Origin: an archaeon
GTDB taxonomy: Archaea > Iainarchaeota > Iainarchaeia > Iainarchaeales > CSSED10-239
DNA length: 64,000 bases
NCBI GenBank assembly: GCA_041657425.1
Contig: JBBABY010000005.1
Span: 22,834 to 86,833, forward strand
Direction of reading: 5' to 3'
Shown here in pieces: positions 5,164 to 58,523 of this stretch (the stretch's first letter is position 1; each line of letters begins with the position of its first letter). The translations under genes were made by a program, and so were the position numbers. The notes beneath the pieces were generated by a model. The model was given only the letters and a program-made list of their open reading frames with translations. It was not told the DNA's origin and did no database searches.

Positions 5164-5270
5164 AATAAAAGGAAAATGAAAGAATATTTAAATGTAGTTT
5201 TTTATAGACTATTTATAATTTGTTTGATTCTTAAATTAAATATATAAGCTAATTTTAAAAAATGATAATT

Positions 5271-6461
5271 ATGAACATATTAGTAATTAATGCAGGAAGC
5301 AGTTCCTTAAAGTTTCAATATATTAATCCAGATACAAAAGCTGTATTAATTAAAGGAAATTATGATGGAATAAATAGAAGCGACGGTAACCCTTGTTTGA
5401 AAAAGATTTCAATTTCTGGCCACAGCACAGTTGATAATTTAATTATTGTAAATCACGAGCAAGCAATTGAAGATATGCTTGTAACATTAACTGAAAAAAA
5501 AGTAATTACGAGATTTTCAGAAATAGAATTTATTGGACATAGAGTTGTTCATGGAGCAGAAGAATATTCAAAAACTACAGAAATTACTGATCAAATGTTA
5601 GAGTCTTTAAAGATTGTTTCTTTTTTAGCTCCACTTCATAATCCAATAAATATTAAATGTATAGAAATCTTAAAAGAGAAATTGCCAGAAGCAAAACAAT
5701 ATGCAGTATTTGACACCGCTTTTCATCAAACAATGCCTGATAAGATTTTCTTGTATGCCTTACCAAAAGACTTATATGATAAATTCAAGATTAGAAAATA
5801 TGGCTTTCACGGAATAAGCCATCAATATGTTTCTAAGCAAGTTGCTGAAATTCTAAATAAAGACTATAATAAATTAAATATAATAACTTGTCATTTAGGT
5901 AACGGTCAAAGCATTTGTGCAATCAAACAAGGAAAGAGCTATGACACCTCTATGGGCTTTACTCCTGTTGATGGGCTTCCAATGGGAACAAGAAGTGGAA
6001 GTTTTGATCCCGAAATTATTCTTTTCCTTTTAGAGAAAGGCTACACTAAAGAAGAAATTAAAAATCTAATAAACAAGAAGTCAGGACTTCTAGGAATAAG
6101 TCAAATAAGCAGTGATCACAGGCAAATTGAAGAACTTTCAAAAAAGGGATTTTTGTTTGCAAGACTTGCTAATGATATTCTTAACACAAGAATAATAAAC
6201 ATCATTGGAAGTTATGCCGCAGAAATGAATGGAGTAGACGTTATTGTTTTTACTGGCGGTATTGGAGAAAAATCAGCTTACTTAAGAGAACAAATTCTTG
6301 AAAACTTTACTTATCTTGGTTTAGAGATAGACAAAGCAGCAAATGACGAACACGAATTAATAATCACAAAACCAAACAGCAAAGTAATAGCAATGGTAAT
6401 TCCAACAAATGAAGAATTAGAAATTGCAATAGAAACAAGTGAGAAAATAAGAAAAGGTTAA
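5271..6461 (+). CDS. ackA: acetate kinase
   Basis: Near-canonical acetate kinase signatures: ILVINAGSSSLKFQ, GHRVVHG, FDTAFHQTMP, ITCHLGNG, VFTGGIGE, IPTNEELEIA. Confidence 0.88.
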   Translation: MNILVINAGSSSLKFQYINPDTKAVLIKGNYDGINRSDGNPCLKKISISGHSTVDNLIIVNHEQAIEDMLVTLTEKKVITRFSEIEFIGHRVVHGAEEYSKTTEITDQMLESLKIVSFLAPLHNPINIKCIEILKEKLPEAKQYAVFDTAFHQTMPDKIFLYALPKDLYDKFKIRKYGFHGISHQYVSKQVAEILNKDYNKLNIITCHLGNGQSICAIKQGKSYDTSMGFTPVDGLPMGTRSGSFDPEIILFLLEKGYTKEEIKNLINKKSGLLGISQISSDHRQIEELSKKGFLFARLANDILNTRIINIIGSYAAEMNGVDVIVFTGGIGEKSAYLREQILENFTYLGLEIDKAANDEHELIITKPNSKVIAMVIPTNEELEIAIETSEKIRKG

Positions 6462-8510
6462 TTACTTTTCATTTCCCATTTTTTCTAATTTCAAAAGTTC
6501 ATTCCATCTTCTGTCTATTTCTTCCTGTATTGATTTAAGAACTGCTTTATTCTCTGGTTTTAAAACACTTTTAAATTTAGTTTGTGTTTTTAAGAATTCT
6601 TCAATTGGTAGTTTGTTTGTTGGTTTGTAATTGATAATTACTTTTCCATTAACCACTTCATAAAGAGGCCAAAAGCAAGTTTCAGTTGCAAGTTTACTTA
6701 TCTTAATTGTTTGTGAAGAATCTGCCTTCATGTTTGTTGGGCAAGCTGCAAATGCAATTAGAACTGCAGGGCCAGAAACATCAAATGCTTTCTTTGCTTT
6801 TTCAAATATATCAACTTGGTTAGAAGGATTAATTTGAGCAACATAAGGAATGTTATGAGCTGCTGCAATCTTTGTTAAATCTTTTGAGAACTCTACTTTA
6901 CCATAAGAACACTTCCCTGAAGGAGTTGTTGAGGTTATTGCACCCTTTGGCGTTGCTGAGCTTCTCTGGTTGCCTGTGTTGTGTACTACAACCCCATCAG
7001 CAATGAAATTATGTTCTCCTTCAACTCTTAAATCAAAGGTTTGTTCTTTGCCAACTTCTTTAATATTTTTTATAATTTCAGTATCGAAGTTTTCATTTCC
7101 AATCAAAAAGTTTTGATATTTATATTGTGTAGGATATTTAGTTGTATTCCAATAATCTTTTTTACTAAAACAAATATAGTGATATTCTGAATTTTTCAGT
7201 AATTTCTTTCCAACGACAAGAGTTCCTTTTTCTTTTTTTTGAGTTGTAATTTTACCAACTCTGTAATTAAGTGTCTGTAATAATAATCTTAATCTTAAGA
7301 TTAATTCTTTACTTGCAGACACATATCTACAACTATCTTTTTTCTTTTTATGAATATACCCGTCAGATAACAACAACCCTTCAATAAATGCTTCTTTTTG
7401 CTCATCTGGAATCGTATAAACCCAAGAAGGAATTATTTTATTCTTTGCACCTTTGTTAAATCCAAGGGATTCAATAAATTTAGTTATGTTAACTGAATTC
7501 ATATAGATGTAAGTTTTATCAGTAGTAATTGTCTTAAATCCAAATACTTTTTTACAAGTAGTTATACATTTTTCTCTACCCTCTGTTCCTTCAGGTAAGG
7601 CAAAACCTATTTCTCCTTTATCTCTAATCCAACCATCTCCAAGATAAAGTCCTAAGAATAACATTAAATCTGTTGTTGATTTTTCTGGTATTTTTACATC
7701 ATTAATTACATTTACTTTATAATCGCCTTTCTTTGAAAGTTGTATTTTTTCAAAAGTAAACGGTTTATTTCCTTTTAATTTCTTTAATGTAATTATTTGA
7801 TCTCCTTTTTTTAATTCTTCAAGTGTTTTCCAAATTAAAGTGTTTGGTTTTCCTCTTGGAAGTTTATTAACAACTAAGAATGGGTGATTTCCTGTTGCTT
7901 TGATGTTATGATGAAAAGTTTCAATTTCATAAACTTTCTTAACTCCATTATCAAACACACCACTGCATTTTTTCAGAACCAATTTGTGTGTTTTTTGATC
8001 AAATGCATAAACCATTTCTCCAACTTTAATTTCAGTTATTTTTTTAAGTCCGGTTTCTGTGTAAATTAATGAGTCTTTACTTAAGCAATTCATGTACCCT
8101 TCATTCGAATAACAAAGATAAACAAAATCATGTCCTCTTTCTAGTGCTCCAGATAAACTTTGAAGACCAATATCAAAACTTCCACCATCTCCAGCAATTA
8201 CTAAAAAATTAATGTCTTTTTTTATTTTTCCTTTTTTCTTTTGTGCTCTGTATGCACTTTCAACTCCAGAAATTGTTGCGGCAGAGTTTGCAAAAAGAGA
8301 ATGTATCCAAGGAATATTCCATGCAGTCTGTGGATAAACTGTTGTTGTAACTTCTGCACAAGAAGTTGCGCTGCTTGCAACAACTGGTTTGTCGCTTGCC
8401 GCAATCACAGTCTTACAAATAATTGCAATGGGGCACCCTGCACAAGTTCTGTATCCTGGAACCATTGCTTTACTTTCAGCTAATTTAATAGCAAGTTCTT
8501 TTGAGTTCAT
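6462..8510 (-). CDS. porB: pyruvate/2-oxoacid:ferredoxin oxidoreductase beta subunit (TPP-binding), intein-containing
   Basis: Exteins match PorB (IAGDGG, YLCYSNEGYMN|TGNQRS); a 370-aa insertion begins with Cys and ends in HN followed by Thr. Confidence 0.85.
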   Translation of the reverse strand: MNSKELAIKLAESKAMVPGYRTCAGCPIAIICKTVIAASDKPVVASSATSCAEVTTTVYPQTAWNIPWIHSLFANSAATISGVESAYRAQKKKGKIKKDINFLVIAGDGGSFDIGLQSLSGALERGHDFVYLCYSNEGYMNCLSKDSLIYTETGLKKITEIKVGEMVYAFDQKTHKLVLKKCSGVFDNGVKKVYEIETFHHNIKATGNHPFLVVNKLPRGKPNTLIWKTLEELKKGDQIITLKKLKGNKPFTFEKIQLSKKGDYKVNVINDVKIPEKSTTDLMLFLGLYLGDGWIRDKGEIGFALPEGTEGREKCITTCKKVFGFKTITTDKTYIYMNSVNITKFIESLGFNKGAKNKIIPSWVYTIPDEQKEAFIEGLLLSDGYIHKKKKDSCRYVSASKELILRLRLLLQTLNYRVGKITTQKKEKGTLVVGKKLLKNSEYHYICFSKKDYWNTTKYPTQYKYQNFLIGNENFDTEIIKNIKEVGKEQTFDLRVEGEHNFIADGVVVHNTGNQRSSATPKGAITSTTPSGKCSYGKVEFSKDLTKIAAAHNIPYVAQINPSNQVDIFEKAKKAFDVSGPAVLIAFAACPTNMKADSSQTIKISKLATETCFWPLYEVVNGKVIINYKPTNKLPIEEFLKTQTKFKSVLKPENKAVLKSIQEEIDRRWNELLKLEKMGNEK
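6978..8087 (-). other. intein with LAGLIDADG homing-endonuclease domain inside porB
   Basis: Starts CLSKDSLIY, ends VVHN with +1 Thr; LAGLIDADG-type blocks LFLGLYLGDGW and IEGLLLSDGY; interrupts the conserved PorB motif YMN-TG. Confidence 0.75.
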
Positions 8511-8513
8511 GTT

Positions 8514-9674
8514 TTATTCCTTTTCTTTTTCAAATCTGTGTTTTTTATAATTATCAACCATCGCTAAAATTAAATCTCTAAATGCTGGATTTTTTATAAC
8601 ATCGTTATTATTAGGATATGCAGATTCTTTCTGTCTGCCTTTAGAGGGGTTAAATAAAATTGCATCAATTTTATTTTCCCCGTCTAATTTTAATGTGCTA
8701 GGTAATTGCTTTGTTCCATCACGCATGCTCCAATCATAACCTATAAGTTTTGAATTTATGTTACTATCAGATAATACTCGACGAATCGGATATTGCATAT
8801 ATGTCCAATCATCGGATCTTGCAGCTGAAGAATATCCAACAAATGATGCTGGCATTTTCTTACTATCACTAGCATCTACAAATATAAAAACTGGATCTTT
8901 ATATTCTTGTTTATAATTATTGATAAATTTCATAAACGTATTAACAATTATTCTTGTTTTTGTTCCATCTCCAACTTCTCCATATCTTCGATCAGGATTA
9001 CTTGAAGGATATTTAAATTTATCTACAATTACTTTTTTACCATCTGGTTTAATTGACCAAGTATAAGGCACACCAGTACTTGCAATACCTACCACAACTA
9101 TTGGTCTTTTTGTAAGTTTTGAAATTCTATTTACAAAAAATTCAGTAATTAAAATCTCTTTTCTAAAGGAGTTCATAAATTCAAAATCAGAAAAGTGCAA
9201 TTTATATTTGTAAAACACTTCTTCTATTTCTTTTTCTAGTTCGTAACCATCTTTAATTTTTCCTGCTCTCACTTTTTCAAATAAAATATTAAGATCTTTT
9301 AGTATTGGAGAATTCACTTGATTAATAGAATTTATATTTAAGTCTGAAATCTGGGATAATATTTCATTAAAATATACTTTCTCTCTTAATAATTGTTCTA
9401 TTCCTAACTTTTCTAAACTTGTAAATACTTTGTTTTCCATATCGCTATACTTGGACGACTGCCAATAGTACCGGCTATTTAATATACGTCTAACTTCTTC
9501 TCTAAGGCGATGTATGCCAATTTTGTTATTCCTTATTTTTTCAAACAATTCGTTTAAATCCTTTAATATTGGACGCCCTTTTAGTTCTGCAGGATTTATT
9601 TTTGAATGTGTAATAGATAGTAATAATTCATTAAATTTGTGAGGCCCATCAGGTTTACGATTTAATTTAGGCAT
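8514..9674 (-). CDS. hypothetical protein with internal tandem repeat, embedded in por operon
   Basis: 386-aa ORF between porA and porB (stop 4 nt before porB start); duplicated roughly 30-aa motif (PILKDLNELFEKIRNNKI / PILKDLNILFEKVRAGKI); no family recognised. Confidence 0.5.
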   Translation of the reverse strand: MPKLNRKPDGPHKFNELLLSITHSKINPAELKGRPILKDLNELFEKIRNNKIGIHRLREEVRRILNSRYYWQSSKYSDMENKVFTSLEKLGIEQLLREKVYFNEILSQISDLNINSINQVNSPILKDLNILFEKVRAGKIKDGYELEKEIEEVFYKYKLHFSDFEFMNSFRKEILITEFFVNRISKLTKRPIVVVGIASTGVPYTWSIKPDGKKVIVDKFKYPSSNPDRRYGEVGDGTKTRIIVNTFMKFINNYKQEYKDPVFIFVDASDSKKMPASFVGYSSAARSDDWTYMQYPIRRVLSDSNINSKLIGYDWSMRDGTKQLPSTLKLDGENKIDAILFNPSKGRQKESAYPNNNDVIKNPAFRDLILAMVDNYKKHRFEKEKE

Positions 9675-9695
9675 AAAATTTTCACTTTAATTATT

Positions 9696-10877
9696 TTATT
9701 CCTTAATTCCAATATATCTGCTTTTTAGTTTCTTTCCTGCAATTACAGAAACTAAAAGTTCTTCAATATCTTTTTGATAAATGTCTCTTCCACCAAGTCC
9801 AAAGACTAAGGACATTACTTCTGGTTTATTTGTTGTATTCATTACTGTTAAACAAATATCTTTGTAAAGAGGAGGATAACTTCCTGGCCCTTCAGTTCTT
9901 TCAAGAACAATTATTTTTTTTGCTTTCTTTAAAGCTTTTGAATATTCTTCATAAAGGAATGGTCTGAATAATATTGGTCGCAAAAGACCAACAGATTTTC
10001 CTTCTTTTCTTAATTTATCAATAACATCTTTTGAGCTTTCTGCTGTTGAACTTAATACAATAAGAACTGTTTCTGAAGAACTTGCAAAATAATCTTCATA
10101 AAAATTAATTTCTTTTCCAAAATTATTTTTAAATTCTTTAGAAATTTTTGAATAGTTGTCTTTAACTTCCAAAAAAGCATCAAACATTTGTTTTCTTATT
10201 TCCATGTAACTGTCAGGTAAAGCAAGAGCACCAATAGTTATTGGGTGATCAGTGTCAAGAAGATTATATTTAGGTTTAAATTCTCCTACAAATTTTTTAA
10301 CAGTTAAATCATCATAAACATTAATAACTTCCATATTGTGGCTTGTGTAAAATCCATCAATACAAACCATGATCGGAAGAGATACTGATTCTGCAAGTTT
10401 TAATCCAAATAATGTCATCTCATAAGCTTCCTCGGCATTCTCACAATACACTTGCATCCAACCTTGGTCAATAGCAGACATTGAGTCACTGTGATCACAA
10501 TGAATGTTAATCGGCGCAGAGATTGCTCTATTAGCCACAGGCATAACTATTGGAAGTCTTAAACCACTAGCGACACTAAGTGCTTCATACATGTAAAGTA
10601 AACCTTGAGAAGCAGTAGCTGTAACTGCTCTAACACCTGCAGCACTTGCACCAATGGTTGCTGAAAGAGCAGAGTGTTCAGATTCTGTTCTAATTAATTC
10701 AGTGTCAACAAGCCCATTAGCAGAATACTTAGCATAACTTTCAATGATTGGTGTTTGAGGAGTAATTGGATACATTGCAAATACTTCTGGGTTAATTTGC
10801 TTTAATGCATAAGCAATTGCTTCTCCACCACTTAAACCTAATTTTGTTGTTTTCATTCCTTCACCATCTTTATACAT
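9696..10877 (-). CDS. porA: pyruvate:ferredoxin oxidoreductase alpha subunit
   Basis: POR N-terminal and domain II signatures (GGEAIAYA, YPITPQT, SEHSA). Confidence 0.85.
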   Translation of the reverse strand: MYKDGEGMKTTKLGLSGGEAIAYALKQINPEVFAMYPITPQTPIIESYAKYSANGLVDTELIRTESEHSALSATIGASAAGVRAVTATASQGLLYMYEALSVASGLRLPIVMPVANRAISAPINIHCDHSDSMSAIDQGWMQVYCENAEEAYEMTLFGLKLAESVSLPIMVCIDGFYTSHNMEVINVYDDLTVKKFVGEFKPKYNLLDTDHPITIGALALPDSYMEIRKQMFDAFLEVKDNYSKISKEFKNNFGKEINFYEDYFASSSETVLIVLSSTAESSKDVIDKLRKEGKSVGLLRPILFRPFLYEEYSKALKKAKKIIVLERTEGPGSYPPLYKDICLTVMNTTNKPEVMSLVFGLGGRDIYQKDIEELLVSVIAGKKLKSRYIGIKE

Positions 10878-11140
10878 TTAACTGGACAGATTTCAGCACA
10901 GATTCCACAGCCTTTACAATAATCCATATTTGTTTCTCCTCTTTTAATGCCAGTTTTATCTTTTTTGGTTAAGATACAATGTTCAGGGCAAGCATTAAAG
11001 CAAAGCATACAGTGTATGCATTTTTTTGAGTCCCACACTGGCTTAACACTTCTCCAAGATCCAGTTTTGTTAACAAGGGCAGTTCCTCCAGGAAGCACCC
11101 CACCAAGATTGTGTTTTTGTTTTTCTGTCATAAATATCAC
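10853..11140 (-). CDS. porD: pyruvate:ferredoxin oxidoreductase delta subunit (2x[4Fe-4S] ferredoxin)
   Basis: Two CxxCxxCxxxCP clusters (CIHCMLCFNACP, CKGCGICAEICP); overlaps porA start. Confidence 0.8.
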   Translation of the reverse strand: MIFMTEKQKHNLGGVLPGGTALVNKTGSWRSVKPVWDSKKCIHCMLCFNACPEHCILTKKDKTGIKRGETNMDYCKGCGICAEICPVKCIKMVKE

Positions 11141-11220
11141 TTATACCTAAATACTATATAGTATATAAAATACAAGTCTTTTTATAATTATTTAATTTAA
11201 AATATATAAGTGATTTAATA

Positions 11221-12048
11221 ATGCCAGAACTAAGAACCTATAAACGAGGAAAAACAGAAGTTGTTGTTAATGGGCATAAGCATGAATTACTAGATAAAAA
11301 AATATTTGAAGAAATTAAAAGACAAGCAAATTTTGTGAGATTACCAAATTCAACAGGCCAGTTTTCTCAAATTTTAGAAAAAGAGATCTTTATTAAAAAG
11401 GCAATTGATCCAGAAACAGACATAGATCAAATGAAGGATTACTTAAAACAATCACAAGTAGTAGATAATATTCCAGAGATTTATGGTTATATTAAACTAA
11501 ATGATAAGTTATATATTATTCAAAAACTAATTTTAGACTCGATGGTATTAAGTGATTATTTAAAAAAAGCAGATAAAAAAGAAATATTAAGAATAAAAGA
11601 GCAACTAAGAAAACAAGGAGAAATACTTTTACAAAATAACCTTTTACCTTGGGATTTTAAAATAAAGAATTTAATTTATTCTAAGAAAGATAATAAAGTT
11701 TATATTTGTGACAATGAGATATCCCACATACACCCCGAACTATTATATTCTTTAATTAAAAGAGCAAATTTACAACCCTCTAGAAAATTAAAATTATTAA
11801 GAGATTTGTCAAAAATAAAAAGAAAAGTTGTTTTAATAAAACAAAAATTGCTTAATTTAAATAAAAAAACAAGCAATGCAGAAACTGTATTGCAATCTAA
11901 TAAAGAAATGAAATCTTCTAAATTAAAAAGATTAATTCATTCAGAAACTAAAAAGATATATTCTAATTTATCAAGTCAAGAAATTAAAAAAATACAACAA
12001 ATTACTTTTGAAGAGTTTTTGGCAGATCTTGATTCTTATTTAAAATAA
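11221..12048 (+). CDS. hypothetical protein, possibly atypical kinase-like fold
   Basis: 275 aa; weak resemblance to protein-kinase-like catalytic region (LLPWDFKIKNLIY ... VYICDNE); opposite strand, splitting porG from porDAB. Confidence 0.35.
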   Translation: MPELRTYKRGKTEVVVNGHKHELLDKKIFEEIKRQANFVRLPNSTGQFSQILEKEIFIKKAIDPETDIDQMKDYLKQSQVVDNIPEIYGYIKLNDKLYIIQKLILDSMVLSDYLKKADKKEILRIKEQLRKQGEILLQNNLLPWDFKIKNLIYSKKDNKVYICDNEISHIHPELLYSLIKRANLQPSRKLKLLRDLSKIKRKVVLIKQKLLNLNKKTSNAETVLQSNKEMKSSKLKRLIHSETKKIYSNLSSQEIKKIQQITFEEFLADLDSYLK

Positions 12049-12593
12049 TCAAATCCTTTTTTAAGACATAAAAGATTTGGTTGAATAATATCTTTCTTTC
12101 CTTTCTTTTCAAATTCTGTAGTTATTGATGTTTCAACTGAAGAATATTTGATAACTCCAAATAATTTAACAAAGGCACCAATAAGAACTGCATTTGGATT
12201 ATTTAATTTTAATAATTCCATAGAAATTGAACTTCCATCAATTACGTTTGTTTTTTCTTCTTCTTTTATGTATTTTTTAAAGTCTGCTTTCTTTTTATTT
12301 GTATTAATTATATAATCACAAGTAAACTTTGAAAGATCAGGGATTGCTGTAAACAAAGTATCGTCAATAACAATAACTAAATCTGGATTAGTTATTGGTT
12401 CATGCACTCTTATTTGTTTGTCAGAAAGTCTAACAAATGATCTTACTGGCGCTCCTCTTCTTTCAGGGCCATACTCAGGAAATGCTTGAACCACTTTTCC
12501 ATCGATTAGCCCAGAATCTGCAATCAATTGTGCACAGGTTTTGGCACCAAGTCCTGCTCTACCATAAATTATTATTTCAAAGTTTGTTTTCAT
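12036..12593 (-). CDS. porG: pyruvate:ferredoxin oxidoreductase gamma subunit
   Basis: POR gamma domain (IYGRAGLGAKTCAQLIA, PERRGAPV). Confidence 0.8.
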   Translation of the reverse strand: MKTNFEIIIYGRAGLGAKTCAQLIADSGLIDGKVVQAFPEYGPERRGAPVRSFVRLSDKQIRVHEPITNPDLVIVIDDTLFTAIPDLSKFTCDYIINTNKKKADFKKYIKEEEKTNVIDGSSISMELLKLNNPNAVLIGAFVKLFGVIKYSSVETSITTEFEKKGKKDIIQPNLLCLKKGFDYFK

Positions 12594-13006: not shown

Positions 13007-14353
13007 TTGAAAACACTAGAAAAATACTTTAAACCACATACAATTGCAATAATTGGGGCCTCTGATAAGCAGGCAAGTATAGGTAATACCCTCGCTAAGA
13101 ACGTAAGCAACTATAAAAGAAAAGTATTTTTTGTAAATCCTAGATTGTCAGGAAAGAAAATATTAAATAAACAAGTTTTTGCAAGTATTCTAGAAATCAA
13201 AGAAACAATAGATTTAGCAGTTATTGCAGTTCCTGCAGTTGCTGTGATTTCTGTTATTGAAGAAATTGCAAAAACTAAATGTAAGAACATATTAATGGTG
13301 ACTTCTGGTTTTTCAGAGATTGGAAGAATCGACATTACTGAGAATATAAAAAAATTAATAACAAAACACAAAATAAATCTAGTGGGTCCAAATTGTTTAG
13401 GTTTATTAAATCTAGAAAATAATTTAGATATTACATTTAATGACAGAAATAAATATGATTTGCCAAAAGTAGGAAGAACATCAATAATTTCTCAGTCAGG
13501 CGCTCTTGGTCTTGCACTTTTAGATCTCTCAAGTAAAGAGCAATTAGAAATTAATAAGTTTATTTCATATGGTAATGCATTAGATGTTGATGAAAGTGAT
13601 TTATTAGAGTATTTTTATACTGACAAAAGCACAGACCTAATTCTTTGTTACATTGAAGGAGTGCAAAACGGGAAGAAGTTCTTTGAAACATTAAAGAAGG
13701 TTACAAAGAAAAAGAAAGTTATAATTTTAAAAGGCGGAATCTCAGAGAAAGGAACAACAGCAGTTAAGAGTCACACCGCAGCAATTGCCGGTTCTTCAAA
13801 AGTTTTTTCTACAGCAGTTAAGCAAGCAGGAGCAAAAGAAGTAGATAATATTAGAGATTTATTTAATCTTGCAAAGTTTTATTCTTGGTACAAAACAAAT
13901 AAGATGGAAAATATTCAGATAATAACTAATGGTGGGGGGTTTGGCGTAATTACAACAGACCAATTAGATTTACAAAAAATAAAGTTGGCAGAAACTACAA
14001 AAGAAACAAAAGAAAAAATAAAAAAGATTGTTCCAATCTATGCGACAACCACAAACCCAATTGATTTAACAGGGGATGCCGATAATGCCAGATTCTGTAA
14101 AGTTATTGATATTTGTTTAAAAGACAAAAATGTTTCAGCAATTGCAGTATTAATGCTTTTGCAACTACCGAGTATTTCTTCTTCAATTGTTAATGAGATT
14201 GCAAGCAGAAAATCAAAAACACACAAATCAATATTTTTAGTATCAGTTGGTGGAAGTAAAACCGATAAGCAATTAGCAGATTTTGAAAAACAAAAAGTAC
14301 TATGTTTTAAAGACCCAAAAGATCTTTCAAGGATTTTAAAACAAATTATTTAA
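13007..14353 (+). CDS. acetyl-CoA synthetase (ADP-forming) alpha subunit / CoA-binding ligase domain protein
   Basis: N-terminal CoA-binding Rossmann motif (IAIIGASDKQASIGN, LVGPNCLGL) and succinyl-CoA-ligase-like domain; TTG start. Confidence 0.7.
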   Translation: MKTLEKYFKPHTIAIIGASDKQASIGNTLAKNVSNYKRKVFFVNPRLSGKKILNKQVFASILEIKETIDLAVIAVPAVAVISVIEEIAKTKCKNILMVTSGFSEIGRIDITENIKKLITKHKINLVGPNCLGLLNLENNLDITFNDRNKYDLPKVGRTSIISQSGALGLALLDLSSKEQLEINKFISYGNALDVDESDLLEYFYTDKSTDLILCYIEGVQNGKKFFETLKKVTKKKKVIILKGGISEKGTTAVKSHTAAIAGSSKVFSTAVKQAGAKEVDNIRDLFNLAKFYSWYKTNKMENIQIITNGGGFGVITTDQLDLQKIKLAETTKETKEKIKKIVPIYATTTNPIDLTGDADNARFCKVIDICLKDKNVSAIAVLMLLQLPSISSSIVNEIASRKSKTHKSIFLVSVGGSKTDKQLADFEKQKVLCFKDPKDLSRILKQII

Positions 14354-14612: not shown

Positions 14613-16208
14613 TTATTTTTTACAATTTTTTTCTTTATGACAACAGGAGCAGTTATCATTATGTGTTATTTCTAATATTTTTCTTCCTTGTTTGGAATAA
14701 TAATCATTAATTGCTGCTTGAAGTGCATCTGCTGCTAAGTTAGAACAGTGCATTTTAATTGGTGGCAAGCCGTCAAGAGATTTTGCAACATCTCCTCTAG
14801 TTATTTTAAAAGCATCATCTAGAGTTTTACCTTTAGCAAGTTCAGTAACCATAGATGAGGTTGCAATTGCTGCTGCACAGCCAAGTGTCTTAAACTTAAT
14901 ATCTTGAATAATTTCTTTTCCGTCTTTGTTTTTTGAAACAGTAATGTATAACCACATTATATCTCCACAATTATGAACAGTAAAAGCATTTGTGTTGTAA
15001 GAATGCGAAGTATCTATTTCTAAATTATACACTTTGCCGGAATAGTTTTCTGTTTTTTTAAAAGTAATGGGGGTATATAAAATGTTTTTATCTATCCAAG
15101 AGTTTATTGCTTCTGGTCTTAGATTATAAAAAGTAACTTCAATAATTTTAGCAAGTTTTGTTGTAGATTCTTTATCGCCCACGTGTATTCTATAACATTC
15201 TTGATGTTTTTGCTCTTTTTTATCTGTTTTTTCTTTTTCTGTATATATTGATGGAATAATTCCTTGTCTTAATAATAATATTTTAAGTTTATGGACTAAT
15301 TCCTTAGATATAGTAGAATATCCCCCCCTTGGTATTTTTGTATTAAAGAAACCATCCCCTTTCCAAATACCATAAATTAAAGATTTTTGTTTTTCTGGAG
15401 GCAATGTCATAAACATATCTGGTATATCTTTATTTTTAGCACCAGATTTAAATAACTCTTTAAATAATTTAACTATAAAAACGCTATTTATATAAACTAC
15501 TTGAGAATGTTGAGTTTCATTTTTTTTAATAATTGGGGTTATTCCAAAAATTTTTTCTGAAATTCTAACCACGTCTTGTGCAAGATTATTTTCTTTTAAA
15601 TTAAAACAAAATGCTATATGCACATTATTTGTTTTATCAAAATAATATCCTTCTGAAAGATAATATCCTGCTAATCTTAAAAAATCTGAATCTAATTTTA
15701 TTTTTGAAGGTATTGATTTACTATTGTGATCAAATTTCTTTTTTTTGGTATTTACTTCTAAGTAATCAACATCTTTTGTATCAGATAGTATTGCATATAA
15801 AATTAAGTCGCCTTTATCTAGTTGTTCTGCGTGATACCAGGCCGGAATTAATGTTTTTTTATTTTTCGTTCTTAAAAATTTATCTCCTTTAGGGATTTTT
15901 ATTGCATAAACAAGATGTTCTTTAGTTAATTTTATTTCTCCTAGTCTGTTTTTTAGAACAATAATTGGTTCAGAAATAACTCTTTTGTAAGTTTCAGTAA
16001 CTGAATGATACTTCCCATCATGACTTATAATAAAATCATTTTTTTTTATATCTTTAATTTTTTTTAGTTTTAAATTAGTGTGTATATTTGTATCTTTAAA
16101 CAAGCATTTAGGATTTCCTACCTTTCCAACTCCGTCAGCATTTTCAATCTCTCCAAGGTTTTGTGGTTTTAAGAAATTTTCCATAACTTTTTTTGAATAG
16201 TTTTCCAT
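14613..16208 (-). CDS. iscU: Fe-S cluster scaffold IscU/NifU-like, intein-containing
   Basis: Exteins MENYSK...GNPK | CGDIMWLYI ... GCAAAIATSS ... HCSNLAADAL are IscU; a 379-aa insertion sits between them. Confidence 0.85.
   Translation of the reverse strand: MENYSKKVMENFLKPQNLGEIENADGVGKVGNPKCLFKDTNIHTNLKLKKIKDIKKNDFIISHDGKYHSVTETYKRVISEPIIVLKNRLGEIKLTKEHLVYAIKIPKGDKFLRTKNKKTLIPAWYHAEQLDKGDLILYAILSDTKDVDYLEVNTKKKKFDHNSKSIPSKIKLDSDFLRLAGYYLSEGYYFDKTNNVHIAFCFNLKENNLAQDVVRISEKIFGITPIIKKNETQHSQVVYINSVFIVKLFKELFKSGAKNKDIPDMFMTLPPEKQKSLIYGIWKGDGFFNTKIPRGGYSTISKELVHKLKILLLRQGIIPSIYTEKEKTDKKEQKHQECYRIHVGDKESTTKLAKIIEVTFYNLRPEAINSWIDKNILYTPITFKKTENYSGKVYNLEIDTSHSYNTNAFTVHNCGDIMWLYITVSKNKDGKEIIQDIKFKTLGCAAAIATSSMVTELAKGKTLDDAFKITRGDVAKSLDGLPPIKMHCSNLAADALQAAINDYYSKQGRKILEITHNDNCSCCHKEKNCKK
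14970..16106 (-). other. intein with LAGLIDADG homing-endonuclease domain inside iscU
   Basis: Begins CLFKDT, ends FTVHN with +1 Cys, which is the first Cys of the IscU CGD motif; LAGLIDADG blocks LRLAGYYLSEGY and IYGIWKGDGF. Confidence 0.75.
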
Positions 16209-22535: not shown

Positions 22536-22757
22536 TTGGCATTACCTGAAGACATTAAAATTCGTGTCTTAAAAAAGATAGATAATATTCTCCAAGAACC
22601 TCATAAAAGACACCTAGAAGGTTCTACTAAATATTTTGTAGCAGAAGTTAGTCAATATAGATTAACATATTTCGTATATGAAAATATTTTATTAGTTAAA
22701 TTTTATTTTGTAGGAAAACATAAAGAATATGAAAAATGGTATAAATCATTTTTTTGA
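22536..22757 (+). CDS. RelE/ParE-family toxin (orphan)
   Basis: C-terminal region YRLTYFVYENILLVKFYFVGKHKEY matches the RelE/ParE fold pattern; TTG start; no co-oriented antitoxin. Confidence 0.5.
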   Translation: MALPEDIKIRVLKKIDNILQEPHKRHLEGSTKYFVAEVSQYRLTYFVYENILLVKFYFVGKHKEYEKWYKSFF

Positions 22758-23021
22758 TTTTGTATTCCTGTAAGGATAAGTAATATATTTAGCATAATCT
22801 CCTAGTGCTTCTTCAGGAGTCAAAGTCTTTCTTTTCCCTAGTTTCACTTGCTCCTCTATATATGCAATTTTTCTATTTACCATCTCAATTTCAATGTCTT
22901 GTTTGCTTTTACCAAAAGAGATTATTGCAAGTCTTATTGCTTCTGATTTAGTTGAGGCATAACCTTCTTCAATCATTTTATTTAAGATTTTTTCAGTAAT
23001 TCCAGTTATTGTTACATTCAT
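22746..23021 (-). CDS. ribbon-helix-helix (CopG/VapB-like) DNA-binding protein
   Basis: N-terminal MNVTITGITEKILNKMIEEGYASTKSEAIRLAI is a typical RHH; convergent with the RelE-like ORF and overlaps its 3' end. Confidence 0.5.
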   Translation of the reverse strand: MNVTITGITEKILNKMIEEGYASTKSEAIRLAIISFGKSKQDIEIEMVNRKIAYIEEQVKLGKRKTLTPEEALGDYAKYITYPYRNTKSKK

Positions 23022-23084: not shown

Positions 23085-23966
23085 TCACGGTGTTTTTCTT
23101 TTAATATCTAATCCAAATGCATGTACAAATTTACCGTAGTTATTTTCTGGTTCAAATTCTTTTGCTTTATCTTTGTATTCAAATATCTTTTCTTTTCTTT
23201 TTTCTAAATTATCATTGCAAATAATTCCTGGGCCACCAATACATCCGCCCTTACAAAAAAGAATATCTACAAATCTTATTTTTTTATTTTGTTTAAGATT
23301 AGTCATTGCTTTTGCTATGCAATCAGGGCCATCACAAACAATCACTTCGTCAAGATTAAGAATGTCTTTAGTAATCATGGAACTTGCAACTCCTCCGCCA
23401 AGAGGATAAATCTTAGTTACATCATTATAGAATTTATCAAACTCATTATTTTCTTTTGTATCAGATATTTTTTTTAATTTCCCAAGTTCTTCAAGATAAT
23501 CATAAATTTCAACAAGTTCTTTAAAAGTTAAAGCAAAATCTATGCAATCTGGGTTTTCTTTAGCTTCATTTTTTTTTGCAAAACACGGGCCAACAAAGAT
23601 TGTTTTATATTCTTCTCCAAATTCTCGCTTAACAAATCTAGCCATCACAACCATTGGTGAAGCAACATCAAGCAATTTATCTTTGTGTTCTGGATATTGG
23701 TTTTCCACAAGTTTAATTATGGTTGGGCAGTTCCCACAAATGTATTGTTTTTCAGGATTATCATTAATTACATCAATGTAACGATAATTAATAAGTTTAG
23801 CTGCATAAGTAAGTTCCATAATTTTTGAGAAACCCATAGTTCTTAAATCTGAGATGATATTTGGGAATTCAAAATCCACAGGAAAGCTTGGCGCCAAAAG
23901 GCAAATTGTTTTCTGTGTGTTTAAGACTTCTGCAACTTCTTTTAATTCTTCGTTCATTTGTTTCAC
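23085..23966 (-). CDS. minimal [FeFe]-hydrogenase H-domain homolog (Fe_hyd_lg_C-like)
   Basis: H-cluster motifs present: LAPS (APAVR-like), L1 ICGNCP...ENQYPE, SP motif, L2 GPCFAKKNE, L3 FCKGGCIGGPG; Asn occupies the proton-relay Cys position; no F-cluster domain. Confidence 0.65.
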   Translation of the reverse strand: MKQMNEELKEVAEVLNTQKTICLLAPSFPVDFEFPNIISDLRTMGFSKIMELTYAAKLINYRYIDVINDNPEKQYICGNCPTIIKLVENQYPEHKDKLLDVASPMVVMARFVKREFGEEYKTIFVGPCFAKKNEAKENPDCIDFALTFKELVEIYDYLEELGKLKKISDTKENNEFDKFYNDVTKIYPLGGGVASSMITKDILNLDEVIVCDGPDCIAKAMTNLKQNKKIRFVDILFCKGGCIGGPGIICNDNLEKRKEKIFEYKDKAKEFEPENNYGKFVHAFGLDIKRKTP

Positions 23967-24955
23967 TTCTTTTCAATTATAAAATTATCTACTTTTGAAT
24001 TTTTGTTTTTTAAAAGAATGATTCTTGATGGTTTACAGCTATCAGAGATTTTAAAATCCTTTGAAACTTTTTCTAATTCTTTTGCATAATTCATACATTC
24101 ATCAAAGCTTGGCATGTTTTCAATGGCCATGGTTTTTCTAGAATATCCTAAAAACATGTAAGATTTAATTTCAATAAAATCTGTTTTTGATTTTTCAAAA
24201 ATTTTTATAAATTCTGGAAGGTATTTTAGGTCATCGTTAAGTCCCTTAATCAACGTAAATCTAATGACTTTTCTACATTTTAGTTTTGGAAAAATATCAA
24301 TTGTTTTCATTAATCTTTCCCAAGAGTCTTTGATTTTTGGTCTATTGATTTTTAAATGTAATTCTTTATTAGGAGCTACAAAAGAAAGATATAGTTGAGT
24401 AGGAAGTGCTTTATTTTTATTAAGTTTTTCGAGATTTTCTGGTTCTAGTCCATTAGTCACAACAAAAATAGTTTTAATTTCTTTTCGGGATTTCAGTTCA
24501 AGAATCATTTTGTCAAGATCCTTGTATATTGTTGGTTCTCCAGAAAGAGATATTGCAACATGACTTGGAATCTCTGCTTCTTTTAGTTTTTTTTTATCCA
24601 CTTTTTTAAATCCACCAAAGCCAGACAATAATTTTTTTCTTTCTGCAAATAATCCATCAATAATTTCTTTAGGATCATCATAGTCGCTTTCTGAAAATTT
24701 ATCTACAGTCATATATTCTGCAGGCCTCCAACAAAATATACAATTATTATGGCACCAAAGAACTGTTGGAGTAATTTGTGCACATCTGTGGCATTCAACA
24801 TTATAGAAATGTTCTTTATAGCAAACCCCTTCTCCTCTAATTGCTTTTTTATTCCATTCACATATTTCAACTGCGGAGTGTTTGCCAAAAATCCCATAAT
24901 GTTTATGTTTTAGATCATCAATAATTTCTTTTTTAATTAATTCTTTAGTTACCAT
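23963..24955 (-). CDS. taw1: tRNA wyosine biosynthesis radical-SAM enzyme TYW1/Taw1
   Basis: Radical-SAM CHNNCIFCWRP (CxxxCxxC) plus N-terminal Cys cluster (CYKEHFYNVECHRC); overlaps the hydrogenase-like gene by 4 nt. Confidence 0.75.
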   Translation of the reverse strand: MVTKELIKKEIIDDLKHKHYGIFGKHSAVEICEWNKKAIRGEGVCYKEHFYNVECHRCAQITPTVLWCHNNCIFCWRPAEYMTVDKFSESDYDDPKEIIDGLFAERKKLLSGFGGFKKVDKKKLKEAEIPSHVAISLSGEPTIYKDLDKMILELKSRKEIKTIFVVTNGLEPENLEKLNKNKALPTQLYLSFVAPNKELHLKINRPKIKDSWERLMKTIDIFPKLKCRKVIRFTLIKGLNDDLKYLPEFIKIFEKSKTDFIEIKSYMFLGYSRKTMAIENMPSFDECMNYAKELEKVSKDFKISDSCKPSRIILLKNKNSKVDNFIIEKK

Positions 24956-35129: not shown

Positions 35130-36089
35130 ATGAAAAATAATAATTACAAATTAATTACTTTTGCAATAGCGGCATTAGTAATTGGAGCAATACTTAGTAC
35201 ATTACTGATTAGTACAGTAAGTGCAGAAAAGACAGACCTTACAAATATAGATGCTCTTGAAATCACAGATCCAGAATCAAGAACAAATTTAATATTAAAT
35301 TTATTAAAAGTAAATAGAATACAAAATAGAAATAATAATCCATTATTTATTGATTCTAGTAATCAATTATCTATCAATGGAGATACTTATGTAAGTATTT
35401 CATCTCCAAACACTGCAAAATTAGGATCAGGAAATGCAGTAGTTAAAGCATTTGCTAATGGTCAAGAACAACAAGCCGGTTCAAAAGTAGAAATTAATGC
35501 AAATAATTTCTTTGTAGGACATGGTGGACAATCAGTATTTAAAATAATAGGCGGAGCTAACGAATACGGTGCACAATATTCTCAAGTAATAATAGAAACA
35601 GGAGTTCAAATGAACCATTATTTACAAGTTAATAATGGGCTTTATGCAGATGGCGCAAACATAGGCGAACATCATAATCAACCAGCATTACAAATTGTAA
35701 GAAATGGTCAATCCGGCAATTACACTTCAGAAATTACAATTAATGCTCCTACCAGATTTCCTAATCTTTCAGAAGGCGCCACCAATACTGGCGCAATATA
35801 TCATTTAGGAGATACTTTTCTTATAGAAAATTATACTGTAGAAGTTATGAATATTTGGGACGCAAATAACGCAGTTGAAATGCAATTAAGAAATGACGTT
35901 AATGGCATAATTGCAGAAGAAGTCTATAGTGAAGGAGATGCAATCTTTGAAGATTATCTTACCACAACTCTTATAGTAGATGGGATAGACTCAGATAGTG
36001 TAAGTATAGTTATACCATCAGGAAATACATACTATGCCTGTTTAACAGAAGACGGAACACTATTTAGAAGCAATGATCCTTGTAACTAA
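35130..36089 (+). CDS. secreted/surface protein, paralog family member A
   Basis: N-terminal TM/signal; shares module ESRTNLILNLLKVNRIQNR and about 95-aa C-terminal domain (GDTFLIEN...GNTYYAC...DGTLFRSNDPCN) with 37792..38628. Confidence 0.6.
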   Translation: MKNNNYKLITFAIAALVIGAILSTLLISTVSAEKTDLTNIDALEITDPESRTNLILNLLKVNRIQNRNNNPLFIDSSNQLSINGDTYVSISSPNTAKLGSGNAVVKAFANGQEQQAGSKVEINANNFFVGHGGQSVFKIIGGANEYGAQYSQVIIETGVQMNHYLQVNNGLYADGANIGEHHNQPALQIVRNGQSGNYTSEITINAPTRFPNLSEGATNTGAIYHLGDTFLIENYTVEVMNIWDANNAVEMQLRNDVNGIIAEEVYSEGDAIFEDYLTTTLIVDGIDSDSVSIVIPSGNTYYACLTEDGTLFRSNDPCN

Positions 36090-37791: not shown

Positions 37792-38628
37792 ATGGCAAAA
37801 GAAAATAATAAAAAGCTAATCATTTGGGCGTTAGTCGCTTTAGTGGTTGGTGTAGTAATAGGTCTACTATTAACAAGTATAGTAACAACAGGAAATGCAG
37901 CAACCGCATTAGGTGAAAAATCAGCAACACTTGATACGAAAACCACAGAAGATAATGTAGTTGAATCAAGAACAAACTTAGTATTAAACTTATTAAAAGT
38001 AAATAGAATTGAAAATAGAGACGAAGATTTATTAATTCATGCAAATAGTGGAACTGAACGTCTTATGTTATGGGGAGACACAATGACAAATATTTGGGCT
38101 CCAAGCATAGATATTTCTGGATCTACAGCGGTCGCAATTTCTACACCTGTAAATTTTATAGGATTAGGAACAGATGGTATAAATATTTTTGCTCATAATT
38201 TTATGATTGCTAATTCAGAACAAACTCAAACAAATCCAATAATTTCACTTGATTTAGAAAATTCTGAATTAGTCATAAATGCATCCACTACAAAATTTAT
38301 AAATGTCGTATCTGTAAGTCCAATCATTTCAGAATATAGTGTAGGAGACACATTTACTATAGAAAATAATACTATAGAAGTTGCTGCCATTTGGGATGCA
38401 AATGGAGTAGTTGAAATGCATTTGTTCGATGCAAATATGATAAATCCAATTGTTGAATTTTACGGAGAAGGAGATATAATCTTTAATCAATATTTAACTG
38501 CAAGTTTAAAAGTAGAAAATATTTCTCAAAATGTAGTAGGCATTGTGGTTTTACCAACAGGCAACTCATATTATGCATGTATAGGATCTGATGGAACTTT
38601 GTTTAAAAGTAATTATCCATGTAACTAA
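37792..38628 (+). CDS. secreted/surface protein, paralog family member B
   Basis: N-terminus MAKENNKKLIIWALVALV shared with 50212 and 51300; ESRTNLVLNLLKVNRIENR and YYAC/PCN C-terminal domain shared with 35130. Confidence 0.6.
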   Translation: MAKENNKKLIIWALVALVVGVVIGLLLTSIVTTGNAATALGEKSATLDTKTTEDNVVESRTNLVLNLLKVNRIENRDEDLLIHANSGTERLMLWGDTMTNIWAPSIDISGSTAVAISTPVNFIGLGTDGINIFAHNFMIANSEQTQTNPIISLDLENSELVINASTTKFINVVSVSPIISEYSVGDTFTIENNTIEVAAIWDANGVVEMHLFDANMINPIVEFYGEGDIIFNQYLTASLKVENISQNVVGIVVLPTGNSYYACIGSDGTLFKSNYPCN

Positions 38629-50152: not shown

Positions 50153-50211
50153 TTCGTTCATTCATTCTATTAAATTACAATTAAATAATTAAAAAATTGG
50201 AGGAAACCAAA

Positions 50212-51162
50212 ATGGCAAAAGAAAATAATAAAAAGCTAATCATTTGGGCATTAGTAGCTTTAGTGATTGGTGTAATAATAGGGTTAGTAATAACAAACCT
50301 GACAACAACAGGAAAAGGGGGTTATATCTCTGAAATTCACCAGATTCGTCCAAAAACACAGGTTGGGATAACTATGCCTATTCCAATTTATTTGGAGTTA
50401 GTTCAAGAAATAGATAGTGTTAATGGTGGAACAGGTACTATTAATAAGTATGCGTTTATTGAAAACGAAGAATTTCACTCTAATTTACCCGGGAAAGTTA
50501 GAAAAAATACCACCGTCAACTTTTCTGATGGCACAGTATTATCTGACGATTATACTTCAGAATTAGAGTATTCTGCATATTATTCAGAATATATTGCAGG
50601 AACCTTTTTTGGTCCATTTACTTCAATAGAGGCTACTATATATGATATGAAAGTAACTTCTATAATTGATGCACACTTTAAAATAGGTTCTAAAATAATA
50701 CCTAAATCATTAACAACTGTATTTAATCCGAATGAAGATTTATTTGCAGTAGTTAATAGTCTTGATTTAGATTGTAGTGGTCAATATAATCTAACACATT
50801 CAGAAGTAGGAGATATTGATGAAATATCTGGGAATTTATATATTTCTCAATATAATCAAGGCACCGGTTGGACTAATGTTTTACAGGATTACCCTTTAGA
50901 TTTAACCTCGTCAGCAGATAATACCTATACAGGATATATTCCAGCATCTGCAATAACTCAGTTAAACAATGGAAGTCAGTACATTAGAGTGTCGATTAAT
51001 AGTCACATTATTACTGCAACAGGATTACAAACAAGTGCAGAAATGCACAAATATCTAAATTGTCAAACCAATAAATCTGAATCATTAACTCCTGAAGAAA
51101 TAAAGGACGTGAGAAAGATAACAGGCTATAAATCAATAGATGAAAGAGCAAAAATAAAATAA
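50212..51162 (+). CDS. secreted/surface protein, paralog family member C
   Basis: N-terminus MAKENNKKLIIWALVALVIGV shared with genes B and D; C-terminal YLNCQ motif shared with D; start moved to the ATG at 50212 after the GGAGG RBS (track ORF begins at 50197). Confidence 0.6.
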   Translation: MAKENNKKLIIWALVALVIGVIIGLVITNLTTTGKGGYISEIHQIRPKTQVGITMPIPIYLELVQEIDSVNGGTGTINKYAFIENEEFHSNLPGKVRKNTTVNFSDGTVLSDDYTSELEYSAYYSEYIAGTFFGPFTSIEATIYDMKVTSIIDAHFKIGSKIIPKSLTTVFNPNEDLFAVVNSLDLDCSGQYNLTHSEVGDIDEISGNLYISQYNQGTGWTNVLQDYPLDLTSSADNTYTGYIPASAITQLNNGSQYIRVSINSHIITATGLQTSAEMHKYLNCQTNKSESLTPEEIKDVRKITGYKSIDERAKIK

Positions 51163-51242: not shown

Positions 51243-51299
51243 CGTTCATTCATTCTATTAAATTACAATTAAATAATTAAAAAATTGGAGGAAACCAAA

Positions 51300-58460: not shown

Positions 58461-58491
58461 ACATATATATATTTTTCTTCCTTTATATATA

Positions 58492-58510
58492 TTAATGATA
58501 ACCATTATCA
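58492..58510 (+). promoter_or_regulatory. Fur-box-like operator TTAATGATAACCATTATCA
   Basis: 16/18 match to the classical Fur box core ATAATGATAATCATTATC; inverted repeat TGATAA-N3-TTATCA; sits between divergent fur and the ATPase/Cys-synthase-rhodanese operon, 14 bp before the fur ATG. Confidence 0.6.
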
Positions 58511-58523
58511 ATAAGGATAAAAT

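Follow-up and report, generated by a model that had tools for sequence, protein, structure and literature searches.

An N-type ultraminimal, H-domain-only [FeFe]-hydrogenase homologue encoded next to taw1 in an Iainarchaeota-type archaeon

Group E comprises the ultraminimal [FeFe] hydrogenases of DPANN archaea (Iainarchaeota, Micrarchaeota and Nanoarchaeota), which have a mean length of 286 amino acids (aa) (Greening et al., Cell 2024, PMC11216029). The same study reported [FeFe] hydrogenases in 130 archaeal genomes from nine phyla, placed the 30 group E members next to group C and treated them as an archaeal monophylum. The enzyme of Candidatus (Ca.) Forterrea multitransposorum (Fm) has one [4Fe-4S] cluster, takes up synthetic [2Fe]adt, displays H-cluster states in Fourier-transform infrared spectra and, after artificial maturation, turns over H2 with a bias towards H+ reduction (PMC11216029). 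A full set of the HydEFG maturases was found in only 5 of the 130 genomes and an alternative maturation route was proposed; the paper also cites reports of active hydrogenases from organisms without maturases (PMC11216029). Here we describe a related gene, hyd, in a 64-kb stretch of archaeal contig JBBABY010000005.1 (referred to in full as the window), where it directly follows taw1, a radical S-adenosylmethionine (SAM) gene. A first-pass annotation of this DNA had left three options for the product: an ultraminimal hydrogenase, a sensory or H-cluster-binding variant, or a Nar1-like Fe-S protein. The first of these fits the published group E class (PMC11216029), and we are nearly certain that hyd encodes a member of the N-subtype within the ultraminimal clade ('group E' in the broad sense), whose [FeFe] hydrogenases consist of the H-domain alone and occur in DPANN archaea and candidate phyla radiation (CPR) bacteria; the class is already published. 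The accompanying statement on how rarely archaea carry [FeFe] hydrogenases is outdated, given their presence in 130 archaeal genomes from nine phyla (PMC11216029). Because GTDB Iainarchaeota were screened in that study, we assume that some N-type sequences, as defined below, are among the published group E members.

The product of hyd is an H-domain and nothing else, as had been proposed from the sequence. One Pfam family, PF02906 (Fe_hyd_lg_C), matches residues 19–246 of the 293 over essentially the full profile (positions 2–245 of 245, E = 3.7e-39), and Pfam revealed neither a second domain nor accessory Fe-S clusters in the protein. The AlphaFold2 model, built on 118 homologues (pLDDT 94.4, pTM 0.91), has the fold of an [FeFe]-hydrogenase H-domain, and its best PDB matches in Foldseek are all H-domains of this family (CbA5H, CpI and HydABC; E about 2e-15, query TM about 0.7). 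Residue equivalences were taken from HMMER alignments to CpI chains, in which ICGNCP of hyd lies opposite TS(C/D)CP. The LAPS, L1, SP, L2 and L3 motifs picked out by the first-pass annotation all align with [FeFe]-hydrogenase counterparts (Table 1), and the four H-cluster ligands are all present, with C80, C128, C238 and C242 aligned to CpI C300, C355, C499 and C503. These four are invariant in the 118 homologues; the full list of Cys positions in the protein is 22, 77, 80, 128, 141, 211, 216, 238, 242 and 250. Loss of the bridging Cys in L3, raised earlier as a possible argument against a hydrogenase, was not seen (C242 aligns with CpI C503).

A search of 5.8 billion proteins (E ≤ 1e-5) returned 320 relatives, and all named relatives are archaeal or bacterial. 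The best 120 of these are 258–328 aa long (117 of them 281–307 aa) and carry only PF02906. That all 120 are about 290 aa, contain PF02906 alone and keep N79 indicates purifying selection. A chance open reading frame (ORF) or a pseudogene was also considered and is ruled out by the 320 conserved full-length homologues. A locus scan using one genome per GTDB species yielded 80 loci, the nearest of which come from archaeal metagenome-assembled genomes, several labelled Ca. Iainarchaeum or Diapherotrites (lineage Ca. Iainarchaeota). The window is syntenic with these genomes, sharing the order arginyl-tRNA synthetase (ArgRS), thioredoxin, Taw1, Hyd, RadA and a phosphoenolpyruvate-utilising enzyme. 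This synteny, together with archaeal genes such as those for RadA and Taw1, points to an Iainarchaeota-like DPANN host. The next nearest hyd genes, at about 50% identity, come from bacteria in which the gene contains 2–10 in-frame TGA codons at conserved Gly positions; these carriers are Gracilibacteria/Absconditabacteria using genetic code 25 (UGA = Gly).

Code-25 N-type hyd genes were seen at loci L007–L029, L039, L056 and L083/L084 (for example, L084 5490..10198). In public translations of these genes, W takes the place of conserved G residues (CEWWCIGGPW) because the wrong genetic code was used.

The family divides into types according to the residue at the relay position of motif L1. The N-type (the window protein and its close relatives) has Asn there and reads I-C-x-N-C-P, the V-type (other DPANN archaea, including Forterrea-genus proteins) reads S-S-V-C-P and the P-type (Dojkabacteria, Saccharibacteria and Microgenomates) reads (A/T)-S-P-C-P. 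Long bacterial relatives (for example, L062, L072, L074 and L069; P0316 and P0365) read F-T-(A/S)-C-P, T-S-P-C-P or T-S-H-C-P and consist of Fer4, H-domain and FeS segments followed by PAS, HisKA or sigma-54 activator modules, the layout of the sensory groups C and D. We built a bootstrapped neighbour-joining tree of H-domains (100 replicates) that included CPR minimal forms together with archaeal and long forms. The N-type clade and the separation of all minimal forms from the long Fer4-FeS-PAS sensory forms each received 100% bootstrap and the Forterrea-containing clade 99%, while the N-type grouped with Dojkabacteria at 31%. CPR sequences are interleaved with archaeal ones within the minimal clade, a feature that PMC11216029 does not describe; within the N-type the monophyly of the archaeal or the CPR side received only 27–28%. 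A profile search against 1.84 billion representatives at 50% identity gave 3392 family hits, among which the N-type collapses to two full-length clusters.

It is therefore nearly certain that the window protein belongs to the ultraminimal clade, in a subclade of its own; the clade probably lies beside group C, which matches the published placement of group E. Because code-25 CPR bacteria carry N-type hyd genes, this clade is not purely archaeal, and a literature search for group E in CPR bacteria found nothing relevant. The N-type is common almost equally to Iainarchaeota-like archaea and to code-25 Gracilibacteria/Absconditabacteria, a distribution that points to gene exchange between the two ultra-small lineages and is at odds with the published picture of an exclusively archaeal group E.

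The residues around the [2Fe] subsite are kept in the window protein: A25-P26-S27, S103-P104, K131 and E134 correspond to A230-P231-S232, S323-P324, K358 and E361 in CpI numbering. Across the family, the pocket-shaping set (A25-P26-S27-F28, E51, S103-P104-M105, P127-C128, K131, E134, T147 and C238-x-G-G-C242-x-G-G-P-G) is equally conserved in the N-type, the V-type and the long group-C-like proteins. A25, P26 and S27 are present in all clades, and the conservation of the aligned residues A25-P26-S27, S103-P104, K131 and E134 extends to the P-type. Because of this equal conservation, we infer that the N-type site still holds an H-cluster-like cofactor.

The first-pass annotation was right that Asn occupies the position of the proton-relay Cys (N79 aligns with CpI C299). 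It placed too much weight on this replacement, since the clades in this part of the family differ in the residue found there (N, V, P, A/S, T or H). Forterrea-genus proteins carry SSVCP, that is, Val at the relay position, and proteins of this genus at 84–89% identity suggest Val in the lineage of the active Fm enzyme too. Because the Forterrea lineage has Val at this site, loss of the relay Cys counts as normal in this half of the family, where it is indeed the rule. The relay Cys is also missing from groups C and D, which mostly carry Ala instead and move protons by other routes (PMC10407848). The N-type stands out by its invariant N79 (120 of the 120 best homologues) and near-invariant C77 (118 of 120), which together give the motif I-C-x-N-C-P. 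A literature search on Asn variants of the relay Cys (C299N, C169N) found nothing relevant.

The group-A proton pathway is wholly missing in the alignment to CpI (C299 to N79, E279 deleted, E282 to R62, R286 to V66 and S319 to L99). Because all five residues are missing, the group-A route would be unusable, and protons, barred from it, would have to arrive by a short non-canonical route. The invariant N79 may use its amide to position either a water or the azadithiolate amine, and C77, which is specific to the N-type and lies two positions before N79, presumably on the same strand face, is a candidate proton relay. Judging from these conservation patterns, N79 (through hydrogen bonding) and C77 (as a possible relay) may replace the canonical proton route. 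With an Asn at the site of contact to the azadithiolate amine and a Cys two positions before it, the N-type amounts to a natural experiment in proton transfer by [FeFe] hydrogenases that lack the canonical relay.

In the fermentative scheme published for group E, pyruvate/2-oxoacid:ferredoxin oxidoreductase (PFOR) passes electrons to a ferredoxin-type carrier that the hydrogenase then reoxidises, and ATP is gained from acetyl-CoA (PMC11216029). The window encodes a four-subunit PFOR, an acetate kinase and an ADP-forming acetyl-CoA synthetase-like protein (Table 1), which fit this model. The latter two indicate acetogenic fermentation, and PFOR is the likely source of low-potential electrons. 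On balance, and with limited confidence, we favour the reading that hyd encodes an N-type ultraminimal [FeFe] hydrogenase whose role in vivo would be ferredoxin-linked H2 evolution. The exposed [4Fe-4S]H cluster would take electrons directly from a reduced ferredoxin-type donor, itself reduced by the PFOR encoded about 10 kb from hyd, and the electrons would be released as H2 while acetyl-CoA is converted to acetate and ATP.

Several points weigh against this reading. The conserved neighbours of the gene are radical-SAM genes, not ferredoxin or PFOR. CrHydA1 is thought to dock acidic ferredoxin via a basic surface, and the acidic hyd product (computed pI 5.6) is a poor fit to this docking model. 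An Asn amide is unable to shuttle protons by itself. A sister relationship between the N-type and the characterised Forterrea clade appears in 0 of 100 bootstraps, and the two share about 35% identity; H-cluster binding and H2 turnover have been shown for the Forterrea enzyme only (PMC11216029). Lastly, maturases are missing: as the first-pass annotation stated, the window contains no HydE, HydF or HydG, with Taw1 the only ORF of ≥70 aa in the 64 kb that has a CxxxCxxC motif and no HydF-like GTPase among its P-loop ORFs. Treating this as unusual was an outdated premise, as most archaeal hydrogenase-encoding genomes lack HydEFG (PMC11216029). With none of the three within 64 kb and most such genomes without them, [2Fe] loading in vivo can only be presumed for the whole class.

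Table 1 Features of hyd, its junction with taw1 and the fermentation genes of the window.
Feature	Position	Strand	Remarks
H-domain-only [FeFe]-hydrogenase homologue (hyd), N-type ultraminimal clade	23085..23966	(-)	293 aa; GTG start at 23966, alternative ATG at 23957
taw1 (TYW1), radical-SAM 4-demethylwyosine synthase	23963..24955	(-)	330 aa; directly upstream of hyd, same strand
Stop/start overlap GTGA	23963..23966	(-)	taw1 TGA stop and hyd GTG start; direct sequence reading
LLAPS motif, L23-L-A-P-S27	23886..23900	(-)	Equivalent of the APAVR/APSVR pocket motif; aligned to MIAPAVR of TmHydA
L1 motif, I76-C77-G78-N79-C80-P81	23724..23741	(-)	Versus F-T-S-(C299)-C300-P of CpI; C80 = C300 ligand
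N79 codon	23730..23732	(-)	Asn in place of CpI C299
S103-P104-M105	23652..23660	(-)	CpI S323-P324-Q325; invariant or nearly so in all clades
L2 motif, G126-P-C128-F-A-K131-K-N-E134	23565..23591	(-)	Versus MPCTSKKFE; C128 = C355 ligand, K131 = K358, E134 = E361
L3 motif, F237-C238-KGG-C242-IGGPG	23226..23258	(-)	Versus ACHGGCVNGGG; C238 = C499, C242 = C503 (bridge to [2Fe] site)
Four-subunit PFOR	6462..12593	(-)	Pfam
PFOR beta (thiamine pyrophosphate-binding), intein-containing	6462..8510	(-)	LAGLIDADG homing endonuclease intein at about aa 152-511
PFOR alpha	9696..10877	(-)	Pfam
PFOR delta, 2x[4Fe-4S]	10853..11140	(-)	Only ferredoxin-type motifs in the 64-kb window
PFOR gamma	12036..12593	(-)	Pfam
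Acetate kinase	5262..6461	(+)	Pfam
ADP-forming acetyl-CoA synthetase-like gene	13007..14353		Pfam

The ORF upstream of hyd is taw1, with a score of 359.1 bits to the NCBIfam equivalog TIGR03972 (cut-off 317.95), the Pfam domains PF04055 (Radical_SAM) and PF08608 (Wyosine_form) and the CxxxCxxC motif. The gene caller of a public assembly made identical hyd and taw1 calls, with GTG as the hyd start and the same overlap of 4 nucleotides (nt). This overlap, reported by the first-pass annotation, thus stands in its length; the tetranucleotide given for it, ATGA, does not, as the sequence reads GTGA. An in-frame ATG lies 9 nt downstream of the GTG, after a Shine–Dalgarno-like GAAGTGA. It is an equally good start, which would give a 290-aa product and a 5-nt gap to taw1 instead of the overlap, and homologues begin at either of the equivalent positions. 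A scan for bacterial promoters and terminators around the operon gave nothing above shuffled expectation, with models that are not suited to archaea. hyd is probably co-transcribed with taw1 and translationally coupled to it. The tight coupling proposed earlier is real and conserved: taw1 directly precedes hyd in nine of nine archaeal N-type loci, with spacers of 0, 4, 0, 6, 15, 15, 45, 2 and 1 nt (0–15 nt in eight of the nine), and the same order occurs in an independently annotated 429-kb contig. Gene content downstream of hyd varies (toxin–antitoxin genes in the window, a major facilitator superfamily (MFS) transporter in the related contig L081).

Radical-SAM genes also accompany hyd in other clades. 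N-type hyd genes of code-25 CPR bacteria are flanked by a radical-SAM methylthiotransferase of the MiaB/RimO family (TIGR00089, 285 bits versus a cut-off of 251) and a HemW-like radical-SAM gene; gene order at these loci is sometimes rearranged, and hyd and the radical-SAM genes stay together. Forterrea-type hyd genes are preceded by a U32-family (TrhP/UbiU-like) gene and followed on the same strand by a TIGR04084 radical-SAM/SPASM gene (294 bits versus 225). Independent gene calls confirm both the CPR and the Forterrea-type arrangements. Overall, a radical-SAM gene lies immediately beside hyd in 36 of 44 loci (archaeal N-type 9/9, code-25 CPR N-type 17/22 and V-type 10/13), compared to a background of 1.3% (8 of 631 ORFs more than two genes away from hyd). 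Because adjacency may be inherited within each clade, the pairing amounts to three or four independent events of about 2.5% each; chance is an unlikely explanation, though the pattern was noticed post hoc. No radical-SAM neighbour was found for P-type CPR hyd (0 of 17) or the other minimal types (0 of 3), and a Nanoarchaeota example has only a SPOUT methyltransferase beside hyd and an Elp3-like gene three genes away.

This pattern bears on an alternative that we consider possible though unlikely, in which ultraminimal H-domain proteins are dedicated partners of radical-SAM or other Fe-S enzymes, or in which the neighbouring radical-SAM proteins are the missing H-cluster maturases. As a partner, and we rate this form no higher, Hyd would be made from the same mRNA as Taw1 and would reduce the radical-SAM [4Fe-4S]2+ cluster of Taw1 to 1+, using electrons from H2 (uptake direction) or PFOR-derived electrons passed on in a ferredoxin-like manner. 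Its counterparts would serve the RimO-like and HemW-like proteins in code-25 CPR and the U32 enzyme and radical-SAM/SPASM protein in the Forterrea type. On this view the invariant C77-x-N79 pair would serve the N-type as an interface of its own for protons or for the partner, and true hydrogenase activity would be compatible with such a role. As for maturation, the TIGR04084 radical-SAM/SPASM protein encoded beside Forterrea-type genes would be a candidate for the alternative pathway postulated in PMC11216029; the word 'radical' is absent from that paper and this gene is not mentioned there.

The partnership is supported by the neighbour frequencies against background, by the use of different radical-SAM families in different clades (TYW1, MiaB/RimO, HemW-like and TIGR04084), by the persistence of the pairing where CPR gene order is shuffled and by its confirmation in independent gene calls. 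Because archaeal TYW1 is without the flavodoxin domain that reduces eukaryotic TYW1 (PMC8941971), a co-translated reductase for Taw1 is plausible. Hyd is acidic and Taw1 is basic (computed pI 9.2), a weak argument since Taw1 binds tRNA. Against it, no fusion of an H-domain to a radical-SAM domain occurs among the best 150 of the 3392 profile hits, in which the long proteins are of Fer4/FeS/PAS/HisKA types, and P-type and other minimal forms have a membrane protein of roughly 175 aa instead of a radical-SAM neighbour. Adjacency could also be inherited synteny (ArgRS-thioredoxin-Taw1-Hyd-RadA; RNA polymerase-U32-Hyd-radical-SAM/SPASM), the pattern was recognised only after the fact, and these small genomes are rich in RNA-modification genes. 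The repeated operon-like pairing of hyd with radical-SAM genes offers a testable handle on the cell role of these proteins and on H-cluster maturation without HydEFG, two open questions of PMC11216029.

Other observations were made at these loci. The V-type trio U32-Hyd-TIGR04084 lies on one strand with gaps of 0–185 nt and an RsmB/F methyltransferase gene on the opposite strand (L038, L040, L041, L045, L046, L049, L052–L054, L057, L086–L088 and L090; for example, L086 3515..8139). P-type CPR minimal hyd genes and some genes for Fer4 plus H-domain proteins of about 350 aa are preceded by a gene for an uncharacterised multi-pass membrane protein of about 175 aa (at −1 in L031–L035, L042, L043, L047, L048, L050, L051, L059–L064, L070, L071 and L078). 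This protein has the motif IPF..GPQ..G..VN and no NCBIfam hit, its gene often overlaps hyd by 4–8 nt and it may correspond to the 'hyd6TM' of PMC11216029. In the window, no homologues of the 175-aa membrane protein or of the RimO-like, HemW-like, TIGR04084, U32 or NOP2 proteins were found. One of the long profile hits, P0250, is a 4122-aa sequence with seven hydrogenase large-subunit, seven small-subunit, three flavodoxin and one FAD-binding domain; it has the appearance of a hydrogenase-reductase gene family of eukaryote type that the gene model joined into one.

A further alternative, which we regard as improbable, is that the H-domain protein holds only a [4Fe-4S] cluster and works like Nar1/CIAO3. 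Without HydEFG the [2Fe] subsite would then never be made in vivo, and the protein would act as an Fe-S carrier, a repair factor or another Fe-S protein, for example for radical-SAM auxiliary clusters. TYW1 and other radical-SAM enzymes are among the clients of Nar1/NARFL. A NifS/NifU Fe-S assembly pair (Pfam) is encoded 5.6 kb from hyd, the neighbours of hyd are multi-cluster Fe-S enzymes, maturases are missing from the window and from most archaeal genomes with such genes, and published activity was obtained only after artificial maturation (PMC11216029). These features agree with a Nar1-like role, against which stand the invariance of K131, A25-P26-S27, S103-P104-M105 and the GGPG loop, whose only contacts are with the [2Fe] subsite or its ligands, and the reports of active hydrogenases in maturase-free organisms (literature cited by PMC11216029). 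The window protein also has no Cys cluster before residue 77 and is without the N-terminal Cys-cluster domain of Nar1, and its relatives are prokaryotic, with the nearest being true H-cluster-binding groups and its branch lying beside the group-C-like sensory type; the Nar1-like option of the first-pass annotation is therefore not favoured. No chain of the Nar1/CIAO3 family is among the PDB sequences matching the profile at E ≤ 1, and so Nar1 is set apart here by architecture alone. A stand-alone H2 sensor related to group C/D HydS and signalling via a separate partner protein is highly improbable: the closest multidomain relatives do have sensory architectures (Fer4, H-domain and FeS, then PAS, HisKA or sigma-54 activator) and groups C and D share the loss of the relay Cys, but the 293-aa protein has no output domain (no PAS, kinase or DNA-binding domain by Pfam) and no FeS motif at its C-terminus, hyd has no conserved regulator gene beside it and the Forterrea enzyme behaves as an H+-reducing catalyst (PMC11216029).

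Elsewhere in the window, a 386-aa ORF without Cys or a Pfam hit (8514..9674, minus strand) lies between the PFOR alpha and beta genes and is not part of the usual four-gene PFOR cluster. The NifU_N/IscU scaffold gene (14613..16208, minus strand) contains a LAGLIDADG intein at about aa 92–413; L081 has an intein-free NifU of 155 aa. Just downstream of hyd are two overlapping convergent ORFs (22536..22757, plus strand, and 22746..23021, minus strand) of 73 and 91 aa, with pI of about 9.4 and no Pfam hit. The equivalent spot in L081 holds an MFS transporter and a PemK/MazE toxin–antitoxin pair, marking it as variable. Four paralogous predicted membrane proteins, two of them in tandem, are encoded on the plus strand (35130..36089, 37792..38628, 50197..51162 and 51285..52247) and have near-identical N-termini (MAKENNKKLIIWALVALV...). 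A PALP (cysteine synthase-like) enzyme fused to a rhodanese domain (56112..57509, minus strand) adjoins a ParA/NUBPL-type P-loop NTPase (57516..58511, minus strand), and the two may form another sulfur/Fe-S trafficking pair.

Among known systems, one parallel is with Nar1/NARFL (CIAO3), an H-domain scaffold that works without the [2Fe] subsite and without HydEFG, as proposed above for a Nar1-like role. Nar1/NARFL is eukaryotic and has an extra N-terminal Cys-rich cluster domain, and the window protein has neither property, a comparison of architecture and not of sequence. With group A (CpI and CrHydA1) it shares the fold (Foldseek E about 1e-14), the four Cys ligands, K358, E361 and the APS and SP motifs. 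It differs from group A in its low identity (18–21% over the structural alignment), condensed loops, lack of F-clusters and change of TSCCP to CGNCP; E279, E282, R286 and S319 are missing, M353 is replaced by G126 and M497 by L236. Groups C and D (TmHydS and TamHydS), which supply its closest multidomain relatives in the tree, resemble it in lacking Cys299 and most of the group-A proton pathway (PMC10407848). M353 is likewise changed to G in the GPC motif. Unlike the window protein, these groups bear a 2x[4Fe-4S] domain at the N-terminus, an FeS motif at the C-terminus and modules of the PAS, HisKA or sigma-54 kind, and their relay site is usually Ala (here also Ser, Pro or His) where the window protein has Asn. 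With group E the window protein shares an H-domain-only architecture of about 290 aa (283–299 aa in the homologue family), a single [4Fe-4S] site with a [2Fe] pocket, a DPANN (Iainarchaeota-type) host, the lack of HydEFG nearby, a group-A proton pathway that is not conserved and probably a position beside sensory group C. It is set apart from the Forterrea-genus group E proteins by an identity of about 35%, by a separate subclade with 100% bootstrap, by its L1 motif (I-C-x-N-C-P versus S-S-V-C-P) and by its neighbour, which is taw1 in the window and U32 plus radical-SAM/SPASM in the Forterrea type.

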